From positions 214,175 through 278,174 of the forward strand of contig JBAZFH010000001.1 in the NCBI GenBank assembly GCA_041653535.1: a DNA stretch of 64,000 nt, read 5' to 3'. The notes under the pieces are model-generated. The model had not been told where the DNA came from and ran no database searches. It saw nothing but the letters and a program-made list of their open reading frames with translations. This document shows, piece by piece, positions 13,070 through 20,400 of the stretch. This DNA comes from Patescibacteria group bacterium. GTDB taxonomy: Bacteria > Patescibacteriota > Patescibacteriia > JACRDY01. Within the stretch, counting starts at the first letter, position 1, and each line of letters begins with the position of its first letter. The translations under genes and the position numbers were made by a program.

Positions 13070-13283
13070 ACCCCCCCTACCCCAAGGGGGTCTCTAACCA
13101 CTCTAAATTGACCCTCGAAGAAGCCCTTAAAGATTGCTATTTGGTGGTGTCAGACCGACACGGCTCACCAAAGAAAAAAAGTATCGAGACCCGATGGGTA
13201 TCTCGTGGTTCTAGACCCGAGTGCCCTTTGGCCTTGATAACTAGATAGACTAAAAAATCACCTGTAATTTAGATGATTTTTTG
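13070..13283 (+). ncRNA. candidate small structured RNA, copy 1 (core ~13074-13167 plus extension and intrinsic terminator)
   Basis: Core matches 19152-19245 with GGGTCTCTAACYACYCYAAATTGAYCC and AAGCCYTTRAAGATTGCTAKTTGGKGG..CAGACYGACAMGGCTCA. The 5' hairpin differs (CCCCC/GGGGG here, AGACCC/GGGTCT in copy 2) while keeping pairing. Ends in a hairpin plus T-run. Confidence 0.5.
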
Positions 13284-13298
13284 GTTGTTGATAACTGT

Positions 13299-13328
13299 TT
13301 GACAGATATATGGTTATGGGTATATACT
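13299..13328 (+). promoter_or_regulatory. sigma70-like promoter for the DUF5320 operon
   Basis: TTGACA at 13299-13304 with TATATA/TATACT about 17 nt downstream. Confidence 0.45.
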
Positions 13329-13392
13329 CATAATAGGTAATATTAATCAAAGGTCGTATTGCCAAAGATTATTAAATTTAACAAAAAAACAT

Positions 13393-13644
13393 ATGCCAAG
13401 AATGGACGGAACAGGTCCTGTGGGCCAAGGCGCCGGTACTGGTCGAGGAATGGGTCCTTGCGGTGGCGGAATGAGAATGGGTTGGTGCGGTCGAGGTCGA
13501 GGTCAAGGGCGAGGTTGGGGTTTTGGGAGATTTTTTCGTTCTCCTAAGAATCAGCTTCAATCATTAGAAGAGGAAGAAAAGATGCTGACAGAAGAATTGG
13601 AAGCGGTAAAAGCTGAAAAGGCGGCCCTTAAGGATCAAAAATAA
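13393..13644 (+). CDS. DUF5320-like small protein (MPRxDGTGPxGxG...TGRGxGxC glycine/arginine-rich N-terminus, C-terminal coiled coil)
   Basis: MPRMDGTGPVGQGAGTGRGMGPCGGG... followed by EEEEKMLTEELEAVKAEKAALKDQK. Confidence 0.65.
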   Translation: MPRMDGTGPVGQGAGTGRGMGPCGGGMRMGWCGRGRGQGRGWGFGRFFRSPKNQLQSLEEEEKMLTEELEAVKAEKAALKDQK

Positions 13645-13743
13645 GAGAAGGTGTGGAATCCGGCCTTCTGTCGTAAGACAGGGGGCCGGGCAACCTTCTC
13701 TTATAGCCAAGAATATCAAGTTTAATATAATTTTTCAATATTT

Positions 13744-14031
13744 ATGCCAAGACCACAACGTTGTCTATGTAAAGGAATAAAATTCGAACCCGATATAAGC
13801 TATTTTAAACCGCAAGGCGTGCCGATGCGGAATCTGCAGGTTATAGAACTTTCGCTCGAAGAAATTGAGGCGTATCGGTTACGCCATATTGAGGATATGG
13901 ATCAACAGGCGGCGGCCGAGAAAATGCATACCTCGACCAGCACTTATCAGCGGATACTCTATTCTGCTTATGGGAAAATTGCCGATGCCCTGATTAACGG
14001 CAAGGCGATTAAAATAATTAAACATCAATAA
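13744..14031 (+). CDS. DUF134 / UPF0251 family putative DNA-binding protein
   Basis: MPRPQRCLCKG...YFKPQGVP...LEEIEAYRL...QQAAAEKM..S.STYQRIL..A..KIADALINGKAIKI matches the COG1342 pattern. Confidence 0.75.
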   Translation: MPRPQRCLCKGIKFEPDISYFKPQGVPMRNLQVIELSLEEIEAYRLRHIEDMDQQAAAEKMHTSTSTYQRILYSAYGKIADALINGKAIKIIKHQ

Positions 14032-14032
14032 T

Positions 14033-14773
14033 ATGCTCACGCTATTAACAATAATTATCGCGACATTTATCATTACTCTCTGTGTCTGGGTGGCGGTATT
14101 GTTTATTTTTTTGAAAAAAGATATTTTGTCAAAAATTACAATGTTTCTGGTTGCTCTGTCCGCCGGAGCGTTGATGGGCGGCGCTTTTTTGCATCTAATG
14201 CCTGAAGCCTCGGAAGAAATAAGGACGGATACATTGTTTGCCATTTTTTTAATTTCTTTTGCCGTCTTTTTTCTGATAGAAAAACTACTCCACTGGCGAC
14301 ATTGCCATAAAGCTGATTGCCCAGTTCATACTTTCGGTCATATGAATTTAATCGGTGACGCCATTCATAATTTTATCGACGGACTGATAATCGCCAGTAC
14401 CTTCATGGTTGATTTTAGTTTAGGTATGGCGACGACATTAGCTGTAGCTATTCACGAAATACCGCAGGAAATCGGCGATTACGGCGTTTTGATCCATGCC
14501 GGATTTAACAACAAAAAAGCTTTGACCCTTAACTACCTCGTCGCTCTCACGGTGGTATTGGGCGGTATAGCGGGATATTTTTCTTTTTCCCACTTGCAGA
14601 ATATCTTGCCTTATCTCCTACCGTTTGCGGCCGGTGGTTTCGTTTACATTGCCGCTTCCGATCTGATGCCGGAAATAAGGAAGGAGACGAACATAAGTAA
14701 GTCCATGGGTACATTTCTTGTTTTTCTTCTGGGTATATTAATGATGTATTTAATCAAATTAATTAATCATTAA
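14033..14773 (+). CDS. ZIP family metal (zinc/iron) transporter
   Basis: Multi-TM protein with a His-rich loop (HWRHCHKADCPVHTFGH) and ZIP signature HEIPQEIGDYGVL. Confidence 0.75.
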   Translation: MLTLLTIIIATFIITLCVWVAVLFIFLKKDILSKITMFLVALSAGALMGGAFLHLMPEASEEIRTDTLFAIFLISFAVFFLIEKLLHWRHCHKADCPVHTFGHMNLIGDAIHNFIDGLIIASTFMVDFSLGMATTLAVAIHEIPQEIGDYGVLIHAGFNNKKALTLNYLVALTVVLGGIAGYFSFSHLQNILPYLLPFAAGGFVYIAASDLMPEIRKETNISKSMGTFLVFLLGILMMYLIKLINH

Positions 14774-14777
14774 AAGC

Positions 14778-15539
14778 ATGCCGGGTAAAATAAAAAACAC
14801 TTTATTGATTTTTTCCGGCAAAGGTGGCGTCGGCAAATCGACCATAGCCACAAACCTGGCCATGTCTTTTGTCCAGAAAGGATTAAAGGTCGGTTTACTT
14901 GATGCTGATATTCACGGTCCAAATTTGGCCTTAATGCTAGGTGTGCAGGAAAAAGCGGTTTTCTCTTACGGAGAAGATTTTATCTTGCCTATTGAAGTGA
15001 GCAAAAATTTATCATTAATTTCCATTGCTTATTTTATACCCCAAAAAGATACTCCGATAATTTGGCGTGGTCCGGCAAAAATGAAAATTATTGAAAAATT
15101 TGTCAAGGAAGTAAGTTGGGGCGACCTTGATTGGCTGATAGTTGACGCCCCTCCAGGTACCGGGGACGAACCATTATCAATCGCTCAATTATTGCCAAAA
15201 TCAGGAGCGATTATAGTCACTACGCCTCAAGACGTCTCATTACTTGATTCCAAGAAAGCGATAAATTTTGCCAAAAAACTTAAATTAAAAATTTATGGTC
15301 TGATTGAAAATATGAGCGGTTTGCAATGCCCTCATTGCAATAAAGTCATCAATTTATTCAAAAAAGGTGGTGGAGAAAAAATTGCTAAAAAATATAAAAT
15401 ACCATTTTTGGGACGCATTCCTCTTGATCCGGAAATAGTTATTTCCAGTGACAGTGGTCGTCCAATTGTCATAAATAAAAAATCAGATACCACAAAGAAT
15501 TTTTTATTAATAGCTGATAAAATAATTAATAAGAAATAA
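14778..15539 (+). CDS. Mrp/NBP35 (ApbC) family P-loop ATPase, Fe-S cluster carrier-like
   Basis: GKGGVGKST deviant Walker A and a CPHCNK CxxC motif. Confidence 0.85.
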   Translation: MPGKIKNTLLIFSGKGGVGKSTIATNLAMSFVQKGLKVGLLDADIHGPNLALMLGVQEKAVFSYGEDFILPIEVSKNLSLISIAYFIPQKDTPIIWRGPAKMKIIEKFVKEVSWGDLDWLIVDAPPGTGDEPLSIAQLLPKSGAIIVTTPQDVSLLDSKKAINFAKKLKLKIYGLIENMSGLQCPHCNKVINLFKKGGGEKIAKKYKIPFLGRIPLDPEIVISSDSGRPIVINKKSDTTKNFLLIADKIINKK

Positions 15540-15543
15540 AAAT

Positions 15544-15813
15544 ATGAAAGTGCTAAAATTTGGAGCAGTATGGTGTGCGGGATGTCTTGTCATGAAGCCG
15601 AGGTGGCAGCAGATTGAAGCAGAAAATCCTTGGCTTTGCACTGAATATTATGATTTTGACCAAGACAAGGAAATCATTAAAAAGTACAACATTACTGATG
15701 TTTTGCCGGTTTTCGTTTTTTTAGATAAAGATGGTAAAGAATTTCTACGTTTAGACGGTGAAGTAGATAAAAATAAATTGATCGAAACTATCAATCAGAA
15801 CAAGGAAAAATAA
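15544..15813 (+). CDS. thioredoxin-like protein
   Basis: WCAGC active-site motif; 89 aa with a Trx fold. Confidence 0.7.
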   Translation: MKVLKFGAVWCAGCLVMKPRWQQIEAENPWLCTEYYDFDQDKEIIKKYNITDVLPVFVFLDKDGKEFLRLDGEVDKNKLIETINQNKEK

Positions 15814-15816
15814 ATT

Positions 15817-17106
15817 ATGAAATTAACATTTAAAAAGATAATCGTGATATTTTTGTTAGGTTTGGTTGTATCAACACAAGTTGTTTCTGCTAGTAATTTT
15901 CCAATCAACGCTTATTTTTTCTACGGAGACGGTTGCCCCCATTGCGCTGAAGAGAGACGGTATTTATTTAATGATTTAAAAAATGATTATCCCAACTTGC
16001 AAATCTATGAATATGAAATCTATAACAACAAAAATAACGCTTTGTTGTTGCAACAAACAGCCGATAAGCTTGGCGTCAGTATCGGCGGCGTGCCGTTTTT
16101 GGTTATCGGCGATAAACAGTTTGTTGGGTTTGCTAATGGCATAACCTCCGGCCAGATAGAACAGCGGGTAAAAGAATGTTCCGTCGCATCATGTCAAGAC
16201 TCAGTCGCCGCTATTGTCGGGATTAAGGTTATTAAACCTCAACAGCCGGCAGTTCAAGAAAATAAAAATCACGAGCCAATCAAAAATGAAAATGTAGCTA
16301 TAAAAAATTCGATCGAAGCGCCAATCGTGCAAGAGCCGCCTAGCCAAGAAAATAAAGATAAATTAATAAAATTACCGTTATTGGGTGAGGTCAATGCGGT
16401 GAATTTTTCTCTACCTATTTTAACTATAATTATGGGGGCTTTGGACGGATTTAATCCTTGCGCCATGTGGACACTTTTATTTTTGATTAGCCTGCTTTTG
16501 GGTATGGAAAACAGGAAAAGAATGTGGCTTCTAGGTAGCGCGTTTATCGTCGCTTCTGCCACCGTTTATTTTCTGTTCATGTCAGCTTGGCTCAATCTAA
16601 TTCTCTTCTTAGGATTCGTGGTTTGGGTAAGAACATTGATTGGATTATTGGCTCTTTTGGGTGGCGGTTACAGTCTTAAAGAATTTTTATTTAATAAGGA
16701 CAGCGGCTGTAAAATAGCCGGTGACGAGCAAAGGCAAAAAACCTTTGCCAGATTAAAGTCAGCGGTTCAACAAAATAGTTTATGGCTGGCGCTGGGGGGA
16801 ATTATTATTTTAGCTTTCGCCGTTAATTTAGTTGAGTTGATTTGTTCGGCCGGACTTCCGGCGGTTTACACACAAGTTTTAGCTTTAAATGAAATGGCTG
16901 GTTGGCATTATTACCTTTACATTCTGCTCTATATATTCTTTTTTATGTTGGACGATTTATTTATCTTTTTTATCGCTATGATTACCTTAGAAATGACGGG
17001 AGTCACCACCAAATATGCCAGAGCATCTCGTTTAATCGGCGGATTGGTAATGTTGGTGATTGGTTTAGCGTTGATATTTAAGCCGGAATGGATAATGTTT
17101 AATTGA
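15817..17106 (+). CDS. fusion of secreted thioredoxin/glutaredoxin-like domain and DsbD/CcdA-type transmembrane thiol-disulfide transporter
   Basis: Signal peptide, GDGCPHC CxxC motif, a P/Q/E-rich linker, then TM helices with conserved cysteines (FNPCAMW and ICSAGLP). Confidence 0.65.
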   Translation: MKLTFKKIIVIFLLGLVVSTQVVSASNFPINAYFFYGDGCPHCAEERRYLFNDLKNDYPNLQIYEYEIYNNKNNALLLQQTADKLGVSIGGVPFLVIGDKQFVGFANGITSGQIEQRVKECSVASCQDSVAAIVGIKVIKPQQPAVQENKNHEPIKNENVAIKNSIEAPIVQEPPSQENKDKLIKLPLLGEVNAVNFSLPILTIIMGALDGFNPCAMWTLLFLISLLLGMENRKRMWLLGSAFIVASATVYFLFMSAWLNLILFLGFVVWVRTLIGLLALLGGGYSLKEFLFNKDSGCKIAGDEQRQKTFARLKSAVQQNSLWLALGGIIILAFAVNLVELICSAGLPAVYTQVLALNEMAGWHYYLYILLYIFFFMLDDLFIFFIAMITLEMTGVTTKYARASRLIGGLVMLVIGLALIFKPEWIMFN

Positions 17107-17966
17107 GTATGGCTGGTAATTTCTTTTTACCTTTTACTTTAACTATTTTAGCCGGACTTTCGACCGTCATCGGCGCTGGTTTGATTTTTTGGGCCAGAAC
17201 CACTTGCACTAAATTTTTGTCTTTCGGTTTGGGACTGTCGGCCGGCGTGATGATTTATTTGTCTTTTTTTGAATTGCTCAAGGAATCAAATAATTTTTTT
17301 CAAGAAGCTTCCAGTGGCGGTTATCATTGGTTGGTAGTTTTGATGTTTTTAGTCGGTTTGGCGATTGCCGGCGTAATCGACGCCTTTACTCATAATCGTA
17401 TGGAAACTTGTTCGGTTGCTGATTACGGATTGAATGGCGGCGGGGATGCCGTTCAATGTCCGAACGATGGATTTGGCGGACGATGTCGTCGCCGAAGGTA
17501 TTGGTCGAGACGGCAAGCTCTTTTGCAAACAGGGACAATTACCGCCATAGTTATTGCTCTGCATAACTTTCCCGAGGGGATAATTACCTTTACCACCGCT
17601 AGCATTAATCCTTTGTTTGGTTTATCGGTCGCCATCGCTATCGCCATCCACAATATACCGGAAGGTTTCTGTGTCGCCTTACCGATTTATTACGCAACGC
17701 AGGATAAGAAAAAAAGTATTTTGTACGCTTTATTGGCCGGTTTAGCCGAACCGCTGGGAGCACTGATTACTTATCTGATACTTTTTCCTTTTATTAATAA
17801 TTTTGTTTTAGGTATAATGTTGGCGCTGGTTGCCGGTATTATGGTCTATGTAGCTTTTGATGAACTTTTGCCCGCCGCCAGGAGATTCGGTCACGGACAT
17901 ATAAGTTTATTTGGCCTAGTGGTTGGCATGATAATTATGGCGTTTAGTTTATACTTGTTAAAGTAA
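17103..17966 (+). CDS. ZIP family zinc transporter (ZupT-like)
   Basis: HNFPEGI and HNIPEG motifs in TM helices. Start overlaps the upstream stop. Confidence 0.8.
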   Translation: MSMAGNFFLPFTLTILAGLSTVIGAGLIFWARTTCTKFLSFGLGLSAGVMIYLSFFELLKESNNFFQEASSGGYHWLVVLMFLVGLAIAGVIDAFTHNRMETCSVADYGLNGGGDAVQCPNDGFGGRCRRRRYWSRRQALLQTGTITAIVIALHNFPEGIITFTTASINPLFGLSVAIAIAIHNIPEGFCVALPIYYATQDKKKSILYALLAGLAEPLGALITYLILFPFINNFVLGIMLALVAGIMVYVAFDELLPAARRFGHGHISLFGLVVGMIIMAFSLYLLK

Positions 17967-17969
17967 TTT

Positions 17970-19085
17970 ATGTTTAAGAAAATAATTTTATTATTATCCA
18001 TTTTGTTTCTCCTAGCGCCAATTTTTGTATCGGCTCAAACAGAGAATAATGCCGAGGATTTGGTTGATCGGGTTTTTAAAGCCGAGGTGATAAAGATTTT
18101 GGAAGAAAAGACGCTAGAGAGAGAGGACGGCTCAAGCGCGTTGCAGCAAAACCTGCTTCTGCGCGGGCTGGAAAAGGAATGGCGAGGCAAAGAATTTGAG
18201 CATCAAGGAATTTCTAAAATTGATGTGGCTAGCGCCAATACCTACAAAGTCGGCGATAAAGTTTTGGTCAGTGAAGTCAAGACGGTTGACGGCGCCACGA
18301 ATTATTATATAACTGATCTAGTTCGCAGCGGTTATTTATATTGGCTGGCTTTTATTTTTTGTGCCGTAATTATCTTTATTAGCAAAAAGAAGGGCATTAA
18401 GTCGTTAATAAGTTTAGTAGTCAGTTTCATTATCATTATTAAATTTATCGTCCCGCAAATTGTCAACGGCGCCAGTCCTCTTCTAGTCGGCGTATTCGGA
18501 GCGTTAATAATTTTAGCGATCATTATTTATCTAACTGAAGGGTGGAATAGGAAGTCGCATATTTCCGTAACCAGCGTCTTTTTTTCGTTATTAGTCACTT
18601 TTGTTTTATCTTGGATATTTACCTCTTTAACCAGATTGACCGGCATGGCTCAGGAAGAAGCGATGTTTCTGCTTGGTACGAACGGTGGGGCGATAGATTT
18701 TCAAGGTTTGCTTTTAGCGGGAATTTTGATCGGCACAGTCGGCGTTTTGGATGATATTATCGTCGGTCAAGTGGAATCGGTTAAACAAATTAAGAAAGCT
18801 AATCCTGACCTCACTAATAAGCAGGTTTATAAGTCGGCTTATGAAGTCGGCAATACTCATTTGGGAGCGATCGTCAATACTTTGTTTTTAGTTTATGCCG
18901 GAGCCAGCCTGCCGCTTTTGTTACTTTTTTATCTCAACCCGATGGGAACAGTTTCTTTTTCGCAGGTAATTAATAATGAGTTGATAGCTACGGAAATTGT
19001 CCGCACTCTTGTCGGCAGTATCGGCGTGGCTTTATCCATGCCGATCGCCACTCTTTTGGCTGTTTGGTTTATAAAAAACAAATAG
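17970..19085 (+). CDS. YibE/F-like integral membrane protein
   Basis: Signal peptide plus an extracytoplasmic N-domain, followed by about 7 TM helices. Architecture resembles YibE/F; the family assignment is tentative. Confidence 0.45.
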   Translation: MFKKIILLLSILFLLAPIFVSAQTENNAEDLVDRVFKAEVIKILEEKTLEREDGSSALQQNLLLRGLEKEWRGKEFEHQGISKIDVASANTYKVGDKVLVSEVKTVDGATNYYITDLVRSGYLYWLAFIFCAVIIFISKKKGIKSLISLVVSFIIIIKFIVPQIVNGASPLLVGVFGALIILAIIIYLTEGWNRKSHISVTSVFFSLLVTFVLSWIFTSLTRLTGMAQEEAMFLLGTNGGAIDFQGLLLAGILIGTVGVLDDIIVGQVESVKQIKKANPDLTNKQVYKSAYEVGNTHLGAIVNTLFLVYAGASLPLLLLFYLNPMGTVSFSQVINNELIATEIVRTLVGSIGVALSMPIATLLAVWFIKNK

Positions 19086-19151: not shown

Positions 19152-19285
19152 CAGACCCCTACCCGAAAGGGTCTCTAACTACCCCAAATTGATCCCCACA
19201 AAAGCCTTTGAAGATTGCTAGTTGGGGGTTCCAGACTGACAAGGCTCATATCAAAAAAATCTCTATAAATTTAGAGGTTTTTTTG
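19152..19285 (+). ncRNA. candidate small structured RNA, copy 2, with intrinsic terminator
   Basis: See copy 1 at 13070. Terminator TCTCTAAATTTAGAGG plus T7. Confidence 0.5.
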
Positions 19286-19733: not shown

Positions 19734-19895
19734 ATTAAGATTTTTAAATTAATTTGCTTGAAAGCCCTCGCTTTACGGCGAGGTTTTTAATACAAGGAGA
19801 TCGGGTGAGTAAGTAGTGTTTTGAGGGTAGCAGTTATTGTTGACAAGTATTTATAATTATGTTAGTGTAAAATATGATTTAAATACAAAGAACTT

Positions 19896-20267: not shown

Positions 20268-20400
20268 TCTTCGCCCCACATCAGATCATAAACCCTTGCT
20301 TTACGGCGGGGGTTTTGTCTATCCAGACAAATCGTCAATCGTACGGTTTTTTGCTATAATTAAACCAGCGATATATTTATATAATTAATTCAAAAAAACT

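Follow-up and report, generated by a model that had tools for sequence, protein, structure and literature searches.

What could bring two metal importers, an Fe-S carrier-type ATPase, a thioredoxin, an unannotated membrane protein and small proteins of the DUF5320 and DUF134 families into one run of genes, and what controls them? The question is raised by a cluster at 13393-19085 of a 64-kb window (the whole stretch of DNA analysed here, positions 214,175 to 278,174 on the forward strand of contig JBAZFH010000001.1, assembly GCA_041653535.1) from a Patescibacteria group bacterium, a member of the Candidate Phyla Radiation (CPR). The genes for a DUF5320 peptide, a DUF134 protein, a short ZIP transporter, an Mrp-type ATPase, a minimal thioredoxin (mini-Trx), the unannotated protein P6, a ZupT-type ZIP transporter and a YibE/F-family protein follow one another there as eight open reading frames (ORFs), all on the + strand. 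From DUF134 to YibE/F the intergenic gaps are 1, 4, 4, 3 and 3 nt. P6 and ZupT overlap by 4 nt if ZupT starts at the TTG at 17103, and lie 2 nt apart if it starts at the ATG at 17109, which the gene caller chose. A sequence-only reading of this DNA had described eight co-directional, tightly spaced genes, which holds at 1-4 nt from DUF134 on, and several overlapping stops and starts, which was overstated, as at most the P6/ZupT pair overlaps. Gene 1 (DUF5320) is set apart from genes 2-8, because the 99-nt spacing before DUF134 contains a hairpin and a second promoter-like site. Co-directionality alone is weak evidence for a unit, because most ORFs of the window are on the + strand; that the cluster goes beyond chance follows from its conservation in other genomes. 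We hold with moderate confidence that it is an autoregulated, cassette-like operon for divalent-metal and Fe-S supply together with envelope thiol reduction.

Conservation was followed from three independent anchors, namely P6 (80 species loci), DUF134 and Mrp; related loci are cited by L numbers. In the P6-anchored loci, mini-Trx was found directly upstream in 32, DUF134 in 27, DUF5320 in 20, YibE/F in 10 and ZIP in 6, always co-oriented. Mrp was present in 1/80 of them and had on that ground been taken as unique to the window, a view overturned by the Mrp-anchored scan: all ten metagenomic loci with an Mrp at least 75% identical carried it inside an operator-DUF5320-DUF134 module (10/10), and homologs of at most 56% identity were located elsewhere. 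The association of DUF134, DUF5320 and Mrp, which the sequence-only reading had named as recurrent in anaerobes, is thereby confirmed within CPR. The eight-gene order of the window recurs unchanged in L091, with proteins 68-92% identical in amino-acid sequence, L092 keeps the order from DUF134 to YibE/F with an inserted threonyl-tRNA synthetase (ThrRS) gene, and the remaining Mrp-anchored loci are shuffled. Among DUF134-anchored loci, L089 reads peptide deformylase (PDF)-DUF134-ZIP-Trx-P6-YibE/F and L085-87 read DUF5320-DUF134-ZIP-YibE/F. ZIP stands directly after DUF134 in L003, L050, L084, L085-87, L089, L091, L092 and L095, and YibE/F is found in 7/10 Mrp-anchored loci as well as in L085-87 and L089. 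The expectation of a conserved gene neighbourhood was thus borne out, with the block recurring in many relatives in kept or shuffled order, and constant content in shuffled order is strong evidence for functional coupling.

The content is variable at the Mrp position. Close relatives sometimes swap Mrp for NifX-like proteins with a Fer4-MinD ATPase and a cation diffusion facilitator (CDF) protein (L082) or for an SDR protein (L083), and other loci of the DUF134-DUF5320 type carry Fer4-MinD ATPases and NifX-like genes instead. Recurrent neighbours of P6 encode TrxB-like proteins, peroxiredoxin, rhodanese, CDF proteins and P-type ATPases, and a Fur-family gene, ZnuABC and rhodanese lie next to the module in L088.

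The cluster starts behind a sigma-70-type promoter, TTGACA-18-TATACT (13299..13328, + strand), which agrees with the consensus at 11/12 positions and justifies the earlier description of a good promoter. Its -35 TTGACA and its spacing are kept upstream of DUF5320 genes in related loci; the second promoter-like site, at 13704-13731 in the gap before DUF134, is weaker. Overlapping the -10 hexamer is a predicted 20-bp palindromic operator, TTATGGGTATATACTCATAA (13314..13333, no strand assigned). It is the single such site in the 64-kb window with both strands read, against 0.04 expected by chance, and 30 sites were found in 1.3 Mb of related loci against ~2.5 in shuffles. Nearly all of these lie 46-111 nt upstream of a DUF5320 start, after the conserved TTGACA. 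The palindrome recurs upstream of the module across CPR lineages and is carried by all DUF134-anchored loci and 9/10 close Mrp-anchored loci; the exception, L099, is a contig of 1.7 kb ending just upstream of DUF134. In L089 and L092, where DUF5320 is apart from the DUF134 operon, each unit has its own copy.

A DUF134 gene was present in 32/32 operator-bearing loci and in 3/54 others, those three being truncated contigs. A Fur homolog was found in 1/32 operator-bearing loci and none in the 64-kb window. The sequence-only reading had proposed a check for Zur/Fur-type operators near 13299-13390; a palindrome does lie there, but it tracks DUF134 and not Fur or Zur, a statement about gene content, since the operator itself was not scored against Fur/Zur box models. 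Its uniqueness within the window fits a local autoregulator, and the candidate repressor is the DUF134/UPF0251 helix-turn-helix protein itself (95 aa, 13744..14031, + strand; PF02001, 67.5 bits vs a cut-off of 27), which also matches Sigma70_r4_2 weakly (20.9 bits, below the cut-off of 25.7). From sequence we infer that a DUF134 dimer would bind the palindrome and repress transcription. The predicted recognition helix reads (Y/F)QR in 21/21 loci with a GGG operator and F(H/A)R in 6/7 loci with a GAA operator. The start at 13744 is backed by a conserved MPRP N-terminus among homologs; the public call of this gene (68 aa; 96-302 of L001) begins 27 codons downstream, at 13825, and is probably a truncated mis-annotation. 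The N-terminal cysteines of DUF134 were considered as a signal sensor and rejected, as they are not conserved. The DUF134 homolog of L067 (~8.5-9.0 kb) bears a C-terminal extension with CxxC...CxxC zinc-ribbon-like motifs, which the window protein lacks and which could be a sensing domain. The gene for PDF, a metal-dependent enzyme, lies immediately upstream of DUF134 within the operator-controlled unit in L003, L050, L088, L089 and L092.

P6 (15817..17106, + strand) is predicted, from an AlphaFold2 (AF2) model searched with Foldseek, from topology and from a chain of homology, to consist of a signal peptide, an outer thioredoxin/glutaredoxin (Trx/Grx)-fold domain with a CPHC motif, a linker and a six-transmembrane (TM) domain of the DsbD superfamily. 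Searches against Pfam, NCBIfam and PDB sequences gave no direct match except a weak N-terminal thioredoxin-like signal. Its family comprises >7,000 clusters at 90% identity, which come nearly all from CPR and in no case have a Pfam domain across the membrane part; the TM domain alone yields 2,745 clusters at 50% identity, and the family occurs in at least 569 species genomes. In the AF2 model (predicted local distance difference test, pLDDT, 71.7) the signal peptide, the Trx/Grx fold, a disordered linker and six TM helices are all seen, with the N-terminal domain at pLDDT >90 and matched to thioredoxins at Foldseek probability 1.0. As modelled, the outer domain (residues ~28-135) would be a plain beta-alpha-beta-alpha-beta-beta-alpha Trx/Grx fold of ~100 aa, and TM1 and TM4 are broken at conserved cysteines. 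These are Cys215 in TM1 and Cys343 in TM4, with Cys298 in a cytoplasmic loop and Asp379-Asp380 in TM5. Across 124 representatives, C215 and C343 are invariant (124/124); C40/C43, the cis-Pro P93, D210-x-x-N-P-C215, C298, E340-x-x-C343 with P348, and D379-D380 are invariant or nearly so, and C121/C126 are lineage-specific. Judged by the signal peptide and the positive-inside rule, the CPHC domain faces outward and the loop with C298 faces the cytoplasm. The linker, a low-complexity tether rich in Q, E, P, N and K whose length varies among homologs, contains an imperfect direct repeat (16240-16269/16330-16359).

The membrane domain required a detour to be placed. No match to DsbD (PF02683) or DsbD_2 (PF13386) was obtained at E <=10 for P6, its halves or 37 family members, and an internal 3+3 repeat test was negative. 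A bridging homolog in L088, encoded directly after DUF134, has the same architecture as P6 and aligns with it over the full length (E = 1e-21). Its TM part matches that of P6 (hidden Markov model E = 4e-21; hhalign probability 98.9%), and the homolog passes the Pfam DsbD_2 gathering score (25.7 vs 24.9 bits). The same TM part aligns with the DsbD beta-domain profile (E = 1.8e-4, 173 columns, probability 48%), with its NPC on the TPC of DsbD Cys163 and its ELPC on the SPC of DsbD Cys285, so that P6 C215 and C343 align, via L088, with Cys163 and Cys285. Because L088 bridges the TM part of P6 to both DsbD_2 and the DsbD beta-domain, we regard the membrane domain of P6, on this homology, as a divergent member of the DsbD superfamily; the extracytoplasmic thioredoxin-fold domain is fused to its N-terminal side. 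The family calls of the sequence-only reading accordingly stand for seven proteins, which pass Pfam thresholds directly, and at superfamily level only for its Trx::DsbD/CcdA fusion, which has no direct match. An L088-type protein occupies P6's slot in the module of L096, which suggests that the two are interchangeable; this L088/L096-type isoform is without the loop Cys and the TM5 Asp-Asp.

P6 was also observed in other surroundings. An alternative context without DUF134 reads ArsR-family regulator, Thioredoxin_3 (an 84-aa CxxC protein), ArsP_1 permease and P6, often with a 159-aa lipoprotein (CWSC) before P6 (L021, L025, L028, L045, L057, L059, L066, L071 and L076). Two P6 paralogs flank a gene for a TrxB-like pyridine-nucleotide-disulfide oxidoreductase in L059 and L073, and a TrxB-like reductase gene adjoins a single P6 in the partial locus L051; TrxB-like adjacency in these three loci ties P6 to an NAD(P)H-dependent reductase. 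P6 homologs were found on contigs of metagenome-assembled genomes labelled DPANN or other archaea (L049, L055, L071 and L074), which could be mis-binning or lateral transfer.

Taken together, these parts suggest the following scheme. Under repressing conditions the operon's own DUF134 dimer would bind the palindrome, within which the -10 hexamer lies, and block transcription. On derepression DUF5320 would be made first and abundantly, and may, speculatively, act as a sensor or co-regulator; the hairpin after it would attenuate or stabilise the transcript and so set a different level for the downstream genes. Derepression would also yield DUF134, the two ZIP importers, the Fe-S carrier ATPase, YibE/F and a two-gene thiol relay. 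In this relay the mini-Trx (WCAGC) would reduce the Cys215/Cys343 membrane pair of P6, possibly via loop Cys298, the pair would then reduce the tethered outer CPHC domain, and through this domain cysteines at the surface or in secreted proteins, or thiols that bind metal, would be kept in the reduced state. The order mini-Trx, C215/C343, external CPHC and envelope targets is the most likely one, because of the homology with DsbD, CcdA and ScsB and the tight coupling to the thioredoxin gene. We infer that the signal sensed is metal limitation or thiol/oxidative stress. ZIP/ZupT and the P-loop NTPase in the cargo, with PDF and ZnuABC/Fur near the module in relatives, point to the former; peroxiredoxin, rhodanese and TrxB-like genes in relatives point to the latter.

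Several observations weigh against this scheme. On the control side, the link between DUF134 and the palindrome is one of co-location, expected for any regulator of this promoter; the correlation of recognition helix and operator variant, though suggestive, is confounded by phylogeny; and the alignment of DUF134 homologs contains no invariant Cys or His able to sense metal. On the side of P6, three TM profiles (effective number of sequences 1.7-3.7) compared by hhalign with an E. coli-type DsbD profile reached a probability of 0.3-0.6%, and an AF2 model of the TM part alone was poor (pLDDT 51) with no Foldseek match, this part being of moderate confidence in the full model. The acidic residues D210, E340, D379 and D380 are invariant in the membrane, of which the L088-type homolog is without the TM5 pair, and they point to ion binding more than to electron transfer alone. 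The E. coli oxidase DsbA has CPHC in its active site, and such a motif fits a reductase less well. As to the theme of the operon, CDF exporters sit beside importers in some modules and make a simple uptake theme incomplete; the metal-uptake plus extracytoplasmic thiol-redox module proposed from the sequence alone fits the recurrent gene content with that restriction.

The membrane acids lead to a rival account of P6, which we regard as unlikely: a cysteine-based metal-ion relay or transporter, like a fused MerP-MerT, and not an electron relay. The CPHC domain would capture a thiophilic metal, Zn2+, Cu+, Cd2+ or Fe2+, and pass it by ligand exchange over Cys215/Cys343 and the membrane acids to Cys298 and on to the cytoplasmic CxxC mini-'thioredoxin' as a metallochaperone. 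The position of D210, E340, D379 and D380 in TM helices beside the cysteines agrees with this, as does a context of ZIP, ZupT, CDF and P-type ATPase genes, ArsR-family regulators and ArsP_1 permeases, and the series of outer CxxC, membrane Cys, loop Cys and cytoplasmic CxxC parallels the logic of the Mer system. Moreover, the Pfam link goes to DsbD_2, which also takes in UreH-like putative metal transporters, and not to canonical DsbD. However, the outer domain and the mini-Trx are both complete thioredoxin folds and have the cis-Pro that characterises thiol-disulfide oxidoreductases, the two cysteines of the membrane part fall on the redox-active pair of DsbD in the alignment, the TrxB-like, peroxiredoxin and rhodanese neighbours indicate redox chemistry, and the L088/L096-type isoform takes the P6 slot although it lacks the loop Cys and TM5 Asp-Asp. 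The CPHC motif, identical to that of DsbA, could instead mark P6 as an oxidative-folding enzyme that makes disulfides and is re-oxidised by its membrane domain as in DsbB/VKOR, with VKOR-Trx fusions as a precedent and weak DSBA Pfam matches in 8/37 family members. This we consider very improbable: the homology of the membrane domain is with the DsbD/DsbD_2 lineage, which is reductive, and not with DsbB or VKOR, the modelled outer domain is without the inserted helical domain of DsbA, a cytoplasmic thioredoxin gene and sometimes a TrxB-like gene are tightly coupled to P6, and the quinones that would serve as electron sink are, to our knowledge, generally missing from CPR bacteria.

Control by a regulator encoded elsewhere, for example of the Fur/Zur/PerR family, with another role for DUF134, is a further account, and one that we find decidedly unlikely. 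AT-rich palindromes over the -10 hexamer are typical of Fur-family boxes, the Fur-family gene and ZnuABC of L088 stand beside the module, and the cargo resembles a Zur/Fur regulon (ZIP/ZupT and the P-loop NTPase, with PDF in L088, L089 and L092). Against it stand the rarity of Fur homologs in operator-bearing loci and the constant presence of DUF134, the single palindrome in 64 kb, as a local autoregulator predicts, and the shift of DUF134 recognition-helix residues along with the operator variant. Autoregulation by DUF134 and a reductive relay through P6 are the readings carried forward here.

The DUF5320 peptide (83 aa, 13393..13644, + strand; PF17253, 45.1 bits vs a cut-off of 27) is composed of an N-terminal motif, MP..D.TGP.G.GP.TGRG.G.C, a Gly/Arg-rich stretch and a C-terminal coiled coil, with one invariant Cys; the N-terminal motif is invariant in 20 CPR homologs. 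Ahead of it, the 5' leader forms a hairpin, GGTAAT...ATTGCC (13336..13363, + strand), with the conserved loop motif AAAGGTCG; its stems covary in a subgroup of loci, as judged by inspection and per-sequence folds, since MAFFT lost the register of the stems. A leader hairpin with the AAAGGTCG loop is also seen in L006, L017, L012, L029, L003, L010, L002, L008, L016, L085 and L088. Loci with this hairpin have no Shine-Dalgarno sequence near the start codon, whereas loci without it have GGAGGTG, and the hairpin may be a translational or stability element. Directly after the DUF5320 stop codon follows a strong hairpin (13641..13704, + strand; -44.6 kcal/mol, z = -5.7), a candidate attenuator, terminator or stabiliser. 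Most related loci have a strong hairpin here too, although the sequences differ. Rfam gave no known RNA in either hairpin. A DUF5320-type peptide with a tandem double N-terminal motif and without the coiled coil is encoded at 10961-11155 of L089, where it has its own operator copy and lies upstream of a P2-type cation ATPase gene. In L003, L010 and L058 a trio of genes beside P6 encodes a sigma-70-like protein (identified by eye, with no Pfam scan), a secreted protein and a membrane protein, the last two ending in Gly-rich tails that resemble DUF5320.

The remaining proteins of the cluster are of recognisable kinds. The short ZIP-family divalent-metal transporter (246 aa, 14033..14773, + strand; PF02535, E = 1.7e-43) carries HNFIDG and HEIPQE motifs and scores 53.6 bits against the NCBIfam ZupT equivalog, below its 252, which makes it a generic short ZIP. 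The second importer (17103..17966 from the TTG at 17103 or the ATG at 17109, + strand) is of the ZupT type, with 302.4 bits against the same threshold of 252, PF02535 at E = 1.7e-30 and HNFPEG and HNIPEG motifs. Between them, the Mrp protein (253 aa, 14778..15539, + strand; PF10609, 319.5 bits) is a single-domain Mrp/NBP35-type P-loop ATPase of the Fe-S carrier type, with a deviant Walker A, GKGGVGKS, at residue 14 and CPHC at residue 184. Walker A of the form GKGGhGK[ST] and a conserved CXXC are the signature of Mrp/NBP35/ApbC Fe-S carriers (PMC6345978). It covers model positions 3-251/365 of MrpORP at 346.8 bits, below the cut-off of 450, and has no Di-Nase domain. The mini-Trx (89 aa, 15544..15813, + strand; PF00085, 34.9 bits vs 23.5) is a minimal cytoplasmic thioredoxin with WCAGC and no signal peptide. 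Its homologs conserve W-C-x-G-C and the cis-Pro (LP); it is atypical in having no canonical WCGPC and reaches 34.4 bits against the 96.8 of the NCBIfam thioredoxin equivalog. The YibE/F-family membrane protein (17970..19085, + strand) matches PF07907 at 227.2 bits vs 27.2.

The boundaries of the cluster are sharp. Nucleotide similarity to L091, the closest relative, covers 13290-19045, promoter to end of YibE/F, and extends no further on either side; the flanks are unrelated between the two and the genomic contexts differ. Neighbours outside the cluster, a Fic/DOC protein, hypotheticals and a bactofilin-like protein, are unrelated to the module. A ~94-nt direct repeat brackets it, with a left copy at 13074..13167 and a right copy at 19156..19248 (both + strand, 80% identical) and two copies only in 64 kb. 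Because similarity to L091 stops at both ends and the direct repeat brackets it, we describe the module as cassette-like. The repeat was not found in related loci, and its copies matched no known RNA in Rfam, the right one without any meaningful match. A GC-rich hairpin opens each copy, and where the two copies differ, the changes look in part compensatory; an insertion scar is one possible reading of the repeat, a small RNA or terminator element another. Further downstream, after small ORFs, lie two terminator-like hairpins, 85% identical, at 19762-19788 and 20290-20316.

These results bear on families about which little is written: our searches of the searchable literature found no functional studies of DUF134, DUF5320, YibE/F or CPR disulfide systems. 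The locus supplies a concrete candidate operator, a candidate regulator and a defined gene set, which makes DUF134 and DUF5320 experimentally testable, and P6 stands for a very large family that has no Pfam or NCBIfam model. The link of P6 to DsbD suggests how CPR bacteria with minimal redox equipment keep cell-surface thiols or metal sites reduced, and fixed content in shuffled order makes these loci good material for studying the coupling of metal uptake, Fe-S delivery and envelope redox. More tentatively, and with some doubt, DUF134 as a sigma-region-4-like repressor and DUF5320 as its metal-, Fe-S- or thiol-sensing partner might constitute a new transcription-control system, with P6 as a CPR-wide branch of the DsbD superfamily and the main export route for reducing power or thiophilic metals in these quinone-less bacteria.

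In DsbD, CcdA and ScsB, electrons of cytoplasmic thioredoxin reach a Trx-like domain in the periplasm by way of two membrane cysteines (PMC3322552). P6 resembles these proteins in having one conserved Cys in each of two TM helices, within (T/N)PC-type and xPC/xICS-type motifs, an extramembrane Trx-fold domain, and a cytoplasmic thioredoxin as genetic partner. Six TM helices are predicted, as in CcdA, whereas DsbD has eight. The Trx-fold domain of P6 is N-terminal with CPHC, in contrast to the C-terminal gamma domain of DsbD with CVAC, and the Ig-like alpha domain of DsbD is missing. P6 further differs from all three in its extra invariant cytoplasmic-loop Cys and invariant membrane Asp/Glu, in being confined mainly to CPR genomes and in giving no direct Pfam/HMM match to DsbD or DsbD_2. 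The Scs system, in which the DsbD-family membrane reductase ScsB keeps the extracytoplasmic CxxC protein ScsC reduced, is likewise encoded at a metal-homeostasis locus (PMC3322552), and both pair a DsbD-family membrane protein, in the module a proposed reductase, with a DsbA-like or Trx-like extracytoplasmic CxxC unit. Unlike the module, Scs is proteobacterial, consists of separate proteins, is linked with copper tolerance and not with ZIP importers and Mrp, and has no control by DUF134/DUF5320.

The window's Mrp recalls the Desulfovibrio ORP cluster, since it shares the deviant Walker A and CXXC with MrpORP, its best NCBIfam match, and in sister modules genes for Fer4-MinD ATPases and Nitro_FeMo-Co proteins stand between those for DUF5320 and DUF134. 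It differs from MrpORP in having no Di-Nase domain and in being joined to transporters and a thiol relay, and neither the cluster of the window nor the recurrent neighbours included a gene for a sigma-54/OrpR-type regulator. With Zur/Fur regulons the locus shares a palindrome over the -10 hexamer ahead of metal importers and a P-loop NTPase; unlike them, its candidate regulator is DUF134, sigma-70-region-4-like and with no evident metal-binding residues. The ZIP, Mrp, Trx and DsbD-superfamily parts are thus of known kinds. What is new is the P6 subfamily, unannotated and CPR-wide, with its N-terminal CPHC domain, extra loop Cys and membrane acidic residues. New as well are a palindromic operator linked to DUF134, a DUF5320 leader gene set off by a hairpin, and the conserved cassette in which all of these are combined.

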